The translations under genes and the position numbers were made by a program. This document shows, in pieces, positions 3,225 to 37,228 of a stretch of DNA of 64,000 nt. Within the stretch, counting starts at the first letter, position 1; each line of letters begins with the position of its first letter. The notes below the pieces were generated by a model that worked only from the letters and a program-made list of their open reading frames with translations, was not told the origin of the DNA and searched no databases. Location of the stretch: assembly GCF_053078305.1 (NCBI RefSeq), contig NZ_CP166879.1; one strand, given 5' to 3'.

Positions 3225-3252
3225 AAAAATGGCGCCGATGGGCGCCATTTTT
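3225..3252. terminator. bidirectional rho-independent terminator between convergent pdxK and crr
   Basis: aaaaaaATGGCGCCgatgGGCGCCATttttt: perfect 8-bp stem flanked by A-run and T-run. Confidence 0.7.
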
Positions 3253-6180: not shown

Positions 6181-6208
6181 AAAAAGCACCTAAAAAGGTG
6201 CTTTTTTA
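6181..6208. terminator. rho-independent terminator downstream of cysK (bidirectional form)
   Basis: aaaaAGCACCtaaaaaGGTGCTtttttt hairpin with flanking A and T runs. Confidence 0.65.
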
Positions 6209-9436: not shown

Positions 9437-11461
<2,025 letters not shown>

Positions 11462-14110: not shown

Positions 14111-14139
14111 CAAAAAAGCGCCTTTAGGGCGCTTTTTTA
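14111..14139 (-). terminator. rho-independent terminator of the Val-Val-Val-Lys tRNA operon
   Basis: aaaaaaGCGCCtttaGGGCGCtttttt hairpin immediately 3' of tRNA-Lys. Confidence 0.7.
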
Positions 14140-17752: not shown

Positions 17753-19942
17753 ATGTTTGTGGAGCATAACCTGATAAAAAATATCAAGATATTCACACTA
17801 GCGTTTACGCTCACCGTGGTACTTATTCAGCTTTCCCGTTTTATTTCGCCACTTGCCATTATCCATTCCAGTTATATCTTTCTGGCGTGGATGCCACTGT
17901 GCGTAATGCTGTCAATCTTGTTTATCTTTGGCTGGCGCGGTGTCGTTCCCGTTTTATGCGGGATGTTTTGCACCAATCTGTGGAACTTTCATCTCTCTTT
18001 TTTACAGACTGCGGTCATGCTCAGCAGCCAGACGTTTGTCGTGTTATGTGCCTGCGCAATATTACGCTGGCAGCTGGGGACGCGTTGGCGTTATGGATTG
18101 ACCAGCCGATATGTCTGGCAACGTCTGTTCTGGCTTGGTTTGGTGACGCCGATCGGCATCAAATGCAGCATGTATCTTGTGGGGAGCTTCTTTGATTTCC
18201 CGCTAAAGATATCCACCTTTTTCGGCGATGCGGATGCCATTTTCACGGTCGTTGATTTGCTAAGCCTTTTCACCGCGGTGCTGATTTACAACATGCTTTT
18301 CTACTATCTCACTCGCATGATTGTAAGTCCCCACTTTGCGCAGATATTGTGGCGCAGGGATATCGCTCCGTCGTTGGGCAAAGAGAAACGCGCATTTACC
18401 TTAAGCTGGCTGGCAGCGTTAAGCGTGCTGCTACTTCTGTTGTGCACACCTTATGAAAACGACTTTATTGCCGGTTACCTGGTACCCGTTTTCTTCATCA
18501 TCTTTACCCTCGGGGTCGGTAAGCTTCGCTATCCGTTTTTAAATCTCACCTGGGCTGTTTCAACGCTTTGCCTGCTGAATTACAACCAGAACTTTTTGCA
18601 AGGGGTGGAAACCGAATATTCGCTGGCATTTATTCTTGCGGTGCTGATTTCCTTTAGCGTTTGCCTGCTCTATATGGTGCGCATTTATCATCGCAGTGAA
18701 TGGCTTAATCGCCGCTGGCATTTGCAGGCGCTGACCGATCCGTTAACGCTCCTGCCCAACTTTCGTGCGTTGGAACAAGCGCCGGAGCAAGAGGCGGGCA
18801 AGAGTTTTTGCTGCCTGCGCATTGATAATCTTGAGTTTATGAGTCGTCATTACGGGTTAATGATGCGCGTTCACTGTATCCGATCAATTTACCGTACGCT
18901 GCTGCCGTTGATGCAGGAAAACGAAAAGTTGTATCAATTGCCGGGTAGTGAACTGCTGTTAGTGCTGAGCGGGCCGGAAACGGAAGGGCGACTCCAGCAT
19001 ATGGTTAACATCCTGAATAGTCGGCAAATTCACTGGAACAATACCGGGCTGGATATGGGCTATGGTGCTGCCTGGGGGCGTTTTGATGGAAATCAGGAAA
19101 CCCTGCAACCCTTGTTGGGGCAGTTAAGCTGGCTGGCGGAGCAATCCTGCGCACATCATCATGTGCTGGCGCTGGATAGCCGAGAGGAGATGGTTTCCGG
19201 GCAGACCACTAAACAGGTGCTATTGCTGAATACCATTCGCACGGCGTTAGATCAGGGTGATTTGCTGCTCTACGCCCAGCCAATTCGCAACAAAGAGGGT
19301 GAAGGTTATGATGAGATCCTCGCGCGACTGAAATATGACGGCGGCATTATGACCCCGGATAAGTTTCTGCCCCTTATTGCTCAGTTTAATCTTAGCGCGC
19401 GTTTTGATTTGCAAGTGCTGGAATCCTTGTTGAAGTGGCTGGCAACACACCCTTGCGACAAAAAAGGCCCGCGCTTTTCAGTTAATTTAATGCCGCTCAC
19501 GCTGCTGCAAAAGAATATTGCCGGGCGGATTATTCGTCTATTTAAGCGTTATCACATCTCCCCGCAGGCGGTCATTCTTGAGATCACCGAGGAGCAGGCG
19601 TTTTCTAACGCAGAAAGCAGCATGTACAACATCGAGCAGCTGCATAAGTTTGGTTTCCGGATTGCGATTGATGACTTTGGCACCGGCTATGCCAACTACG
19701 AACGGTTAAAGCGTTTGCAGGCTGATATCATCAAAATTGATGGCGTCTTTGTGAAAGATATCGTCACGAATACGCTGGATGCGATGATTGTGAGATCAAT
19801 TACCGATCTGGCGAAAGCGAAGTCATTGAGTGTGGTCGCGGAGTTTGTCGAGACGCAACAGCAACAGGCGCTATTGCATAAGCTCGGGGTGCAATATCTG
19901 CAAGGGTATTTGATTGGTCGCCCGCAGCCATTAGCTGATTAA
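17753..19942 (+). CDS. pdeA: cyclic-di-GMP phosphodiesterase (membrane N-terminal sensor domain, degenerate GGDEF, EAL)
   Basis: Start placed at MFVEHNLIKNIKIF (729 aa); multiple TM helices, C-terminal EAL motifs (EITEEQ, DDFGTGYANY); track ORF 17693 is an upstream extension. Confidence 0.85.
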   Translation: MFVEHNLIKNIKIFTLAFTLTVVLIQLSRFISPLAIIHSSYIFLAWMPLCVMLSILFIFGWRGVVPVLCGMFCTNLWNFHLSFLQTAVMLSSQTFVVLCACAILRWQLGTRWRYGLTSRYVWQRLFWLGLVTPIGIKCSMYLVGSFFDFPLKISTFFGDADAIFTVVDLLSLFTAVLIYNMLFYYLTRMIVSPHFAQILWRRDIAPSLGKEKRAFTLSWLAALSVLLLLLCTPYENDFIAGYLVPVFFIIFTLGVGKLRYPFLNLTWAVSTLCLLNYNQNFLQGVETEYSLAFILAVLISFSVCLLYMVRIYHRSEWLNRRWHLQALTDPLTLLPNFRALEQAPEQEAGKSFCCLRIDNLEFMSRHYGLMMRVHCIRSIYRTLLPLMQENEKLYQLPGSELLLVLSGPETEGRLQHMVNILNSRQIHWNNTGLDMGYGAAWGRFDGNQETLQPLLGQLSWLAEQSCAHHHVLALDSREEMVSGQTTKQVLLLNTIRTALDQGDLLLYAQPIRNKEGEGYDEILARLKYDGGIMTPDKFLPLIAQFNLSARFDLQVLESLLKWLATHPCDKKGPRFSVNLMPLTLLQKNIAGRIIRLFKRYHISPQAVILEITEEQAFSNAESSMYNIEQLHKFGFRIAIDDFGTGYANYERLKRLQADIIKIDGVFVKDIVTNTLDAMIVRSITDLAKAKSLSVVAEFVETQQQQALLHKLGVQYLQGYLIGRPQPLAD

Positions 19943-19950
19943 CAGGCGTA

Positions 19951-19982
19951 AAAAAACCGGGGAATTATCCCCGGCTTTTTTA
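19951..19982. terminator. bidirectional rho-independent terminator between convergent pdeA and nupC
   Basis: aaaaaaACCGGGGaattatCCCCGGCttttttt. Confidence 0.7.
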
Positions 19983-19991
19983 TGTATGGTC

Positions 19992-21194: not shown

Positions 21195-21460
21195 ATTTGC
21201 TCCAAATATGAGGCAGGTTAAATTTCCGTGCACATTCTATGTAACATGGTTAAGGAAAACGAGATCTGACACACACTATAATGACGTCCTGTGACAAGCT
21301 TCAAAAATAGTGAGCTGTCATACATTTCTGCTATGTTGTGTATGGAAGCTGAAAGTTATGTAAATGTGCTAACATTAAACATAACCATAACATTCAAGTC
21401 ATCAATCTTTTCGTAGTCATAATCCTGGTCTATCAGAGAAATCACCACAATCCATTTAAA

Positions 21461-21517
21461 TGAATTTGATAATCATTCTCGTTTGACATAGCATGAAACA
21501 TAGCAAAGGCTATGTTT
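21461..21517 (+). promoter_or_regulatory. mntH promoter region with Fur-box-like sequence and MntR operator palindrome
   Basis: tgaatttGATAATCATTCTCg (Fur-box-like) followed by perfect palindrome AAACATAGCaaagGCTATGTTT at 21496-21517, about 12 nt upstream of mntH ATG. Confidence 0.6.
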
Positions 21518-21520
21518 TAG

Positions 21521-22768
<1,248 letters not shown>

Positions 22769-37197: not shown

Positions 37198-37228
37198 GCA
37201 AACAGGAGCCTGATGGCTCCTGTTTTTC
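37198..37228. terminator. rho-independent terminator after alaC
   Basis: AAACAGGAGCCtgatGGCTCCTGTTTttc. Confidence 0.7.

Follow-up and report, generated by a model that had tools for sequence, protein, structure and literature searches.

Introduction

The control of the manganese transporter gene mntH by both iron and manganese is already known and was described in 2001-2002. Patzer and Hantke reportedly published in 2001, under the title 'Dual repression by Fe2+-Fur and Mn2+-MntR of the mntH gene', a Mn2+-dependent binding of MntR to the Escherichia coli promoter and a DNase I footprint over 'a nearly perfect palindrome'. For Salmonella mntH, Kehres et al. are said to have placed in 2002 a Fur motif on the -35 hexamer and to have located an inverted repeat in the interval from the likely -10 hexamer to the ribosome binding site. 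Further MntR sites of E. coli, in the mntS/rybA promoter and in the region upstream of mntP, were reportedly described in 2011 by Waters, Sandoval and Storz. At the RNA level, Shi, Zhao and Kong are said to have proposed in 2014 that in Salmonella mntH the sequence GCUAUG pairs alternately with a duplicated CAUAGC.

More recent sources agree on the regulators of this gene. According to a 2021 review, Fur and MntR are both repressors of mntH and act independently of one another, and in the E. coli promoter MntR, Fur and OxyR have separate sites (PMC8632737); a RegulonDB-derived curation names the same three proteins as its regulators. Repression by Fur has been measured with an mntH-lacZ fusion (Beauchene et al. 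2015), and an information-theory model predicted a cluster of Fur sites for position -56 relative to the start of mntH (Chen et al. 2007, PMC2189734). A paper from 2026, citing Patzer & Hantke 2001, describes MntR boxes as short inverted palindromes, and the mntP sites serve activation, not repression (PMC8632737). Reviews also mention a terminator-like Mn2+ 'riboswitch' in the 5' UTR of Salmonella mntH, which is said to exist in E. coli too (among them PMC8632737).

Here we compare one E. coli mntH locus with these systems. The analysed DNA, called the window in the following, is a stretch of 64,000 nt from contig NZ_CP166879.1, and all positions refer to it. Our results indicate that the part of the E. 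coli mntH promoter bound by repressors is very probably the region 21462-21517, through which the gene is under dual control by Fur and MntR.

Results

Genomic context of mntH

The window is a part of the E. coli chromosome with the local gene order pdeA (+), nupC (-), mntH (+), ypeC (-), yfeO (-) and glk (+). The mntH coding sequence extends from 21530 to 22768 on the plus strand and encodes an Nramp Mn2+/H+ symporter of 412 amino acids. The assignment was made with the NCBIfam model NF001923 (622 bits), and the ATG at 21530 is the start annotated in RefSeq. Between nupC and mntH lies an intergenic stretch of 366 nt, which is 100% identical to that of strain Combat11I9 and was found in 5424 of 5426 complete E. 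coli genomes; one genome of this collection additionally has the mntH promoter region on a plasmid, as a second copy.

Some further features of the neighborhood concern nupC. A long and highly conserved block at 21205-21345 adjoins its start and is presumably the nupC regulatory region; a minus-strand promoter (TTGAAG/TATAGT, 21304-21275) was predicted on this side, together with TGTGA-like motifs and imperfect inverted repeats at 21313-21350 and 21350-21396. The gap between pdeA and nupC amounts to just 49 nt in the window (19943-19991). In K-12 MG1655 the element IS186C is located directly beyond the nupC stop codon on the side facing pdeA, an insertion which the window strain does not carry at this place.

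Anatomy of the mntH promoter

By applying a sigma-70 scan we found one forward promoter, composed of the -35 hexamer TTGATA (21466-21471), a spacer of 17 nt and the -10 hexamer TAGCAT (21489-21494), with a score of 9/12. The -10 hexamer overlaps an additional, third copy of the half-site described below, which is located upstream (ACATAGCA, 21486-21493, direct repeat D1). From this promoter we infer a transcription start of mntH at about 21501. An inverted repeat begins 1 nt past the -10 hexamer and covers this predicted start, which would thus lie within the left arm, and the Shine-Dalgarno sequence GAGG (21520-21523, plus strand) follows directly after the repeat. We also considered GATAAT (21468-21473) as an alternative -10 element, for which neither a usable -35 hexamer nor a TG extension was found; it would put the start at about 21480 and would yield a leader containing both CAUAGC copies. 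The binding of a second MntR dimer to the upstream ACATAGCA copy was rejected, as the invariant positions of this copy are those of the -10 hexamer.

The palindrome at the mntH start and its recurrence at other MntR targets

The initial annotation, which was made from the sequence alone, had described an inverted repeat with perfect 9+9 pairing, located 12 nt upstream of the ATG of mntH, and this description proved to be exact. Both the sequence itself and a repeat finder place the arms AAACATAGC at 21496-21504 and GCTATGTTT at 21509-21517; they are 100% complementary over 9+9 nt and separated by the 4-nt spacer AAAG. The remaining 12 nt up to the start codon (21518-21529) include the Shine-Dalgarno sequence. 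We take this palindrome at 21496-21517 to be the one covered by the MntR footprint of Patzer and Hantke from 2001.

A perfect 9+9 inverted repeat is unremarkable by itself. For spacers of 0-8 nt we counted nine such loci in the window versus 2.3 expected in Markov-1 random sequence, and most of the other loci are terminator-like in appearance. Perfect inverted repeats of this kind, flanked by runs of A and T and bidirectional in look, were noted at 3226-3251, 6181-6206, 14113-14137 and 37200-37225. The specific pattern of the mntH repeat is much rarer: AAACATAGC-N4-GCTATGTTT with at most three mismatches occurs once in the window compared to 0.04 expected occurrences, and the core ATAGC-N4-GCTAT occurs once compared to 0.07. 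With this core, its A/T-rich outer flanks and its position in the promoter of a manganese-homeostasis gene, compatible with repression relative to the predicted +1, the inverted repeat has the properties of an MntR box. A full-text literature search with the half-site AAACATAGC returned unrelated primer matches only.

The motif is also present at further members of the MntR regulon. In K-12 we found AGATATAGCACAGGCTATATTA with the core ATAGC-N4-GCTAT at rybA/mntS, beside mntR, where it spans the annotated 5' end. Upstream of mntP the same core is present in two sites, GAATTTAGCCAAAGCTATGTTT and AGACATAGCTTAGGCTATATTA, at approximately 360-420 nt from the ATG. The numbers of core matches expected by chance in the mntS and mntP loci are 0.00 and 0.13, respectively.

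Conservation in Enterobacteriaceae

For the evaluation of conservation we compared the window with 80 mntH loci from distinct species of Enterobacteriaceae (81 sequences in total), which include Escherichia, Salmonella, Citrobacter, Enterobacter, Klebsiella, Raoultella, Buttiauxella, Kluyvera and Kosakonia. The -35 hexamer TTGATA is present in all 81 sequences. The -10 hexamer occurs in the variants TAGCAT (54 sequences), TAGCTT (11), TAATAT (6), TAACAT (5), TAGTTT (3) and TAGCCT (2), so that its inner positions vary and T1, A2 and T6 are invariant in 81 of 81 sequences (TAnnnT). These three are the signature positions of the sigma-70 -10 element, and their invariance supports the assignment. 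The spacer between both hexamers measures 16-17 nt in each of the 42 sequences for which it was determined, and the gap from the -10 hexamer to the inverted repeat is 1 nt in every one of the 81 sequences.

Within the repeat the two arms behave differently. The left arm AAACATAGC was found in 81 of 81 sequences and the loop AAAG in 80, while the right arm reads GCTATGTTT in only 21 sequences, all of them from Escherichia, Salmonella, Citrobacter and Kluyvera. In the other 60 it is replaced by GCTATATTT (44 sequences), GCTATATCT (12), GCTATATTA (3) or GCTATATCA (1); outside the four genera it reads GCTATAT, with no compensating change in the left arm. The word 'perfect' in the initial annotation therefore holds for the window, whereas perfect symmetry as such is limited to a few genera. 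The right-arm position that varies across genera (G/A, with the partner C/T) is the same one that varies among the MntR sites of E. coli itself, and the lost perfect symmetry is therefore within the evident tolerance of MntR. Taken together with the recurrence of the core, the pattern supports a protein operator with individually constrained halves and not a selection for self-complementarity.

Calculated by segment, the identity to the window is 0.98 for the Fur/-35 segment, 0.93 for the -10 hexamer, 1.00 for the left arm, 1.00 for the loop, 0.89 for the right arm and 0.98 for the Shine-Dalgarno sequence, compared to 0.39-0.52 for the neighboring spacers. When E. coli genomes are compared with each other, 5237 of 5426 reach an identity of 99% or more over the 42 nt that extend from 21491 up to the ATG. 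A particular arrangement was observed in Trabulsiella odontotermitis TbOT1.10, where 16 nt located between the MntR box and the ATG of mntH are duplicated in tandem (ATATTTCAGAGGCAGA), which doubles the Shine-Dalgarno region and extends the distance from the repeat to the ATG to 28 nt, compared to 9-13 nt elsewhere.

The Fur box and the candidate OxyR region

The Fur-box-like sequence that the initial annotation had noted in front of the palindrome, GATAATCATTCTC, was confirmed at 21468-21480. The 19-mer at 21462-21480 agrees with the consensus GATAATGATAATCATTATC at 15 of 19 positions, which makes it the joint best match in the window, where two sites with a score of at least 15 were found versus 0.2 expected. 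As the mntH site has four mismatches, a search for the 19-mer that allowed at most three gave no match in the window. Read in the 7-1-7 form, TGATAATcATTCTCg (21467-21481) agrees with TGATAATnATTATCA at 12 of 14 positions, with TGATAATCATTCTCG as the 7-1-7 core at 21467-21481. Counted by hand, the agreement is 13/14 in most relatives and reaches 14/14 in two loci of Salmonella enterica subspecies, which carry the perfect 7-1-7 sequence TGATAATCATTATCA. We thus place the Fur box at 21462-21481. It overlaps the -35 hexamer TTGATA of the iron- and manganese-responsive mntH gene, and its mean identity over 21466-21480 is 0.98 in the 81 sequences. Together with the inverted repeat behind the -10 hexamer, this gives the layout that Kehres et al. 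reportedly described in 2002.

The other site with 15/19 matches (9494-9512) is located inside an open reading frame of 671 aa (9446-11461), which we take from its N-terminus to be DNA ligase LigA. Because this site lies within coding sequence, a score of 15/19 alone is weak evidence. A further 7-1-7-like sequence, TGATAAAAAATATCA, is found at 17772-17786 near the 5' end of the pdeA reading frame, and both look-alikes are probably chance matches. The case for control by Fur and MntR is decided by position and conservation and not by score. The position -56 predicted by the information-theory model (Chen et al. 2007) corresponds to 21474 in the window, which is the center of the Fur box.

Just upstream of the -35 hexamer we find a candidate OxyR region at 21419-21455. 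Locally, the sequence agrees with the OxyR consensus (ATAGnTnnnAnCTAT-N7-ATAGnTnnnAnCTAT) at no more than 13 of 20 positions, a score that is not significant by itself and is equally high at 13 positions of the window. The block CTATCAGAGAAATCA (21430-21444), which lies inside this best match, is 91% conserved over the 81 sequences, compared to 39-52% in its flanks, and the OxyR site published for mntH is probably located here.

A possible RNA-level role of the palindrome

The strongest alternative, which is compatible with the operator reading, concerns transcripts starting upstream of 21487. In such transcripts the palindrome would form the terminator-like stem of a Mn2+-responsive 'riboswitch', where the hairpin is followed by UUUU and the upstream CAUAGC (21487-21492) would compete for GCUAUG (21509-21514). 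We regard this as possible, albeit rather unlikely. GCUAUG and both copies of CAUAGC are all present in the window (repeat pairs D1, I3 and I6), as is the duplicated ACATAGCA (D1, I6), and the hairpin folds at -9.4 kcal/mol with a z-score of -4.95. The translation of the small open reading frame ypeD in K-12 suggests that some RNA covers this region. Beginning at the ATG at 21460, this translation suggests, like the published 5'-UTR 'riboswitch', that some transcripts start farther upstream.

However, the conserved -35 and -10 hexamers put the predicted start at about 21501, inside the left arm, and an RNA starting there has no significant structure (-3.7 kcal/mol, z = +0.9). A terminator scan of the leader was negative, with a stem that contains only three G-C pairs and is followed by four U. 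Rfam holds no family for the leader; a scan at E-values up to 10 returned noise only, namely eukaryotic miRNA and snoRNA models. Covariation among relatives was not observed: in 62 distinct sequences we counted zero compensatory changes for the hairpin and zero for the alternative helix, while the fourth pair of the hairpin is broken (C.A) in 46 of the 62 sequences and the equivalent pair of the alternative helix in 47. In addition, the invariant T1, A2 and T6 of the upstream copy are those of the -10 hexamer, and T6 lies outside the proposed pairing. The conservation of the upstream copy is that of a -10 hexamer and not that of a pairing partner. The hairpin may provide a secondary layer of control, a role which we propose tentatively and which would depend on an upstream start site.

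The small open reading frame ypeD

In the K-12 annotation the operator region is overlapped by ypeD (b4819, 29 aa, plus strand), which corresponds to 21460-21549 of the window and extends over both the Fur and the MntR box as well as the start of mntH. This reading frame was identified through ribosome profiling and has apparent homologues in Salmonella and Citrobacter (bioRxiv 10.1101/2021.07.02.450978). By alignment to a strain with intact ypeD we observed that codon 9 is TGA in the window (A at 21486, where K-12 has G). What remains are 8 codons, or an 18-aa reading frame from the ATG at 21493, and in an identical strain PGAP annotates 21493-21549 only. The 40-nt haplotype with the TGA allele is present in 289 of 5426 E. 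coli genomes and the K-12 haplotype in 3711.

Combining ypeD with the hairpin, one could imagine a third, post-transcriptional layer within the same 60 nt, in which rare transcripts from an upstream start would carry ypeD as an upstream open reading frame together with the palindrome hairpin. Ribosomes on ypeD, whose end falls within mntH in K-12 and coincides with the start codon of mntH (ATGA) in many Enterobacter and Citrobacter, would unfold the hairpin, and translation and termination upstream of mntH would then be coupled to the translation of ypeD and to Mn2+. We consider such a coupling improbable; if it existed, the natural TGA allele, carried by about 5% of the E. coli genomes, would already offer a natural case for comparison.

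It is less probable still, and in our view very unlikely, that the conservation of the region reflects coding constraint on a small protein YpeD, with the regulatory motifs being incidental. The annotation of b4819 over the equivalents of 21460-21549, its origin from ribosome profiling, the apparent homologues in Salmonella and Citrobacter and an ATG located 6 nt before TTGATAA in most species are in line with this idea. On the other hand, the identity at codon positions 1, 2 and 3 (0.81, 0.86 and 0.87) shows no codon periodicity, roughly half of the species have a reading frame of just 8-11 aa, and in Enterobacter the C-terminal half is read in another frame. An intact reading frame under protein-level constraint was thus found neither in the window, with its TGA at codon 9, nor across genera. 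Because length and frame are not conserved and codon periodicity is missing, the 'conservation' of ypeD looks like a by-product of the operators, and the apparent cross-species conservation of YpeD is best explained by the underlying regulatory DNA.

That a functionless chance palindrome happens to lie next to an equally fortuitous AT-rich Fur look-alike, for which one may point to the roughly 2.3 perfect 9+9 repeats expected in 64 kb and to the second 15/19 Fur match inside a coding region, is the least probable explanation and is effectively refuted by the near-invariance over 80 species while flanking spacers drift and by the identity of at least 99% in 5237 of 5426 E. coli genomes, with the presence of the core at further MntR targets and the literature on Fur and MntR control of mntH (PMC2189734, PMC8632737) pointing the same way.

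Discussion

Our findings agree with the initial annotation, which had proposed an MntR-type operator and a Fur box for dual Mn/Fe repression. MntH is encoded downstream, the core of the palindrome recurs at mntS and mntP, and the predicted Fur cluster at -56 coincides with the Fur box; the near-invariance in 80 species, the conserved sigma-70 promoter and the literature on Fur and MntR support the same interpretation. What the present analysis observed are the sequence elements with their geometry and conservation, and the MntR core recurring at other targets; for the binding of Fur and MntR and the resulting repression we rely on the published work.

On this basis, the following mechanism can be proposed, of which the exact start site and the steric mode of repression are deduced from the geometry. 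The sigma-70 promoter (-35 at 21466-21471, -10 at 21489-21494) would drive an mntH mRNA with a short leader from about 21501. Under iron-replete conditions Fe2+-Fur would occupy 21462-21481 and, overlapping the -35 hexamer, keep RNA polymerase off the promoter. When manganese is replete, Mn2+-MntR, a dimer of the DtxR family, would bind 21496-21517 and block either open-complex formation or promoter escape. Fur and MntR would act independently of each other, and OxyR probably activates from just upstream, at about 21419-21455.

As a discovery this is small, as the mntH site was footprinted and genetically dissected more than 20 years ago. It provides a useful positive control, since a reader working without any tools placed a real dual metal operator at its exact coordinates. 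The comparative data add a small refinement, namely that the perfect symmetry of the operator is clade-specific.

Several known systems can be compared with the mntH region of the window. The Salmonella UTR1 'riboswitch' (Shi, Zhao & Kong 2014) reportedly involves the same nucleotides CAUAGC, CAUAGC and GCUAUG, and the hairpin and the U-run are found in the window as well; however, it needs an upstream start that the conserved mntH promoter does not provide, and it has neither covariation support nor an Rfam model. UTR1 is also unrelated to the yybP-ykoY Mn2+ riboswitch of mntP (PMC8632737). Compared with the canonical Fur box (GATAATGATAATCATTATC; TGATAATnATTATCA), which the mntH site resembles at 15/19 and 12/14 positions, respectively, the overlap with the -35 hexamer is that of classical Fur-repressed promoters, but E. 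coli has a degenerate 5' hexamer (GAATTT). The mntS/rybA and mntP sites share with mntH the core ATAGC-N4-GCTAT and its A/T-rich flanks, and the mntS site spans its own start site as the mntH site does, for which the start is predicted. Of the 18 positions specified in the mntH pattern, 3-4 are different in these sites, which all lack the perfect 9+9 symmetry. The motif of Salmonella mntH (Kehres et al. 2002) is identical to that of the window. Finally, the site in the window is the MntR operator of E. coli mntH (Patzer & Hantke 2001), with the same gene, species and sequence, and to this published operator our comparison adds that its perfect 9+9 symmetry occurs only in Escherichia, Salmonella, Citrobacter and Kluyvera.
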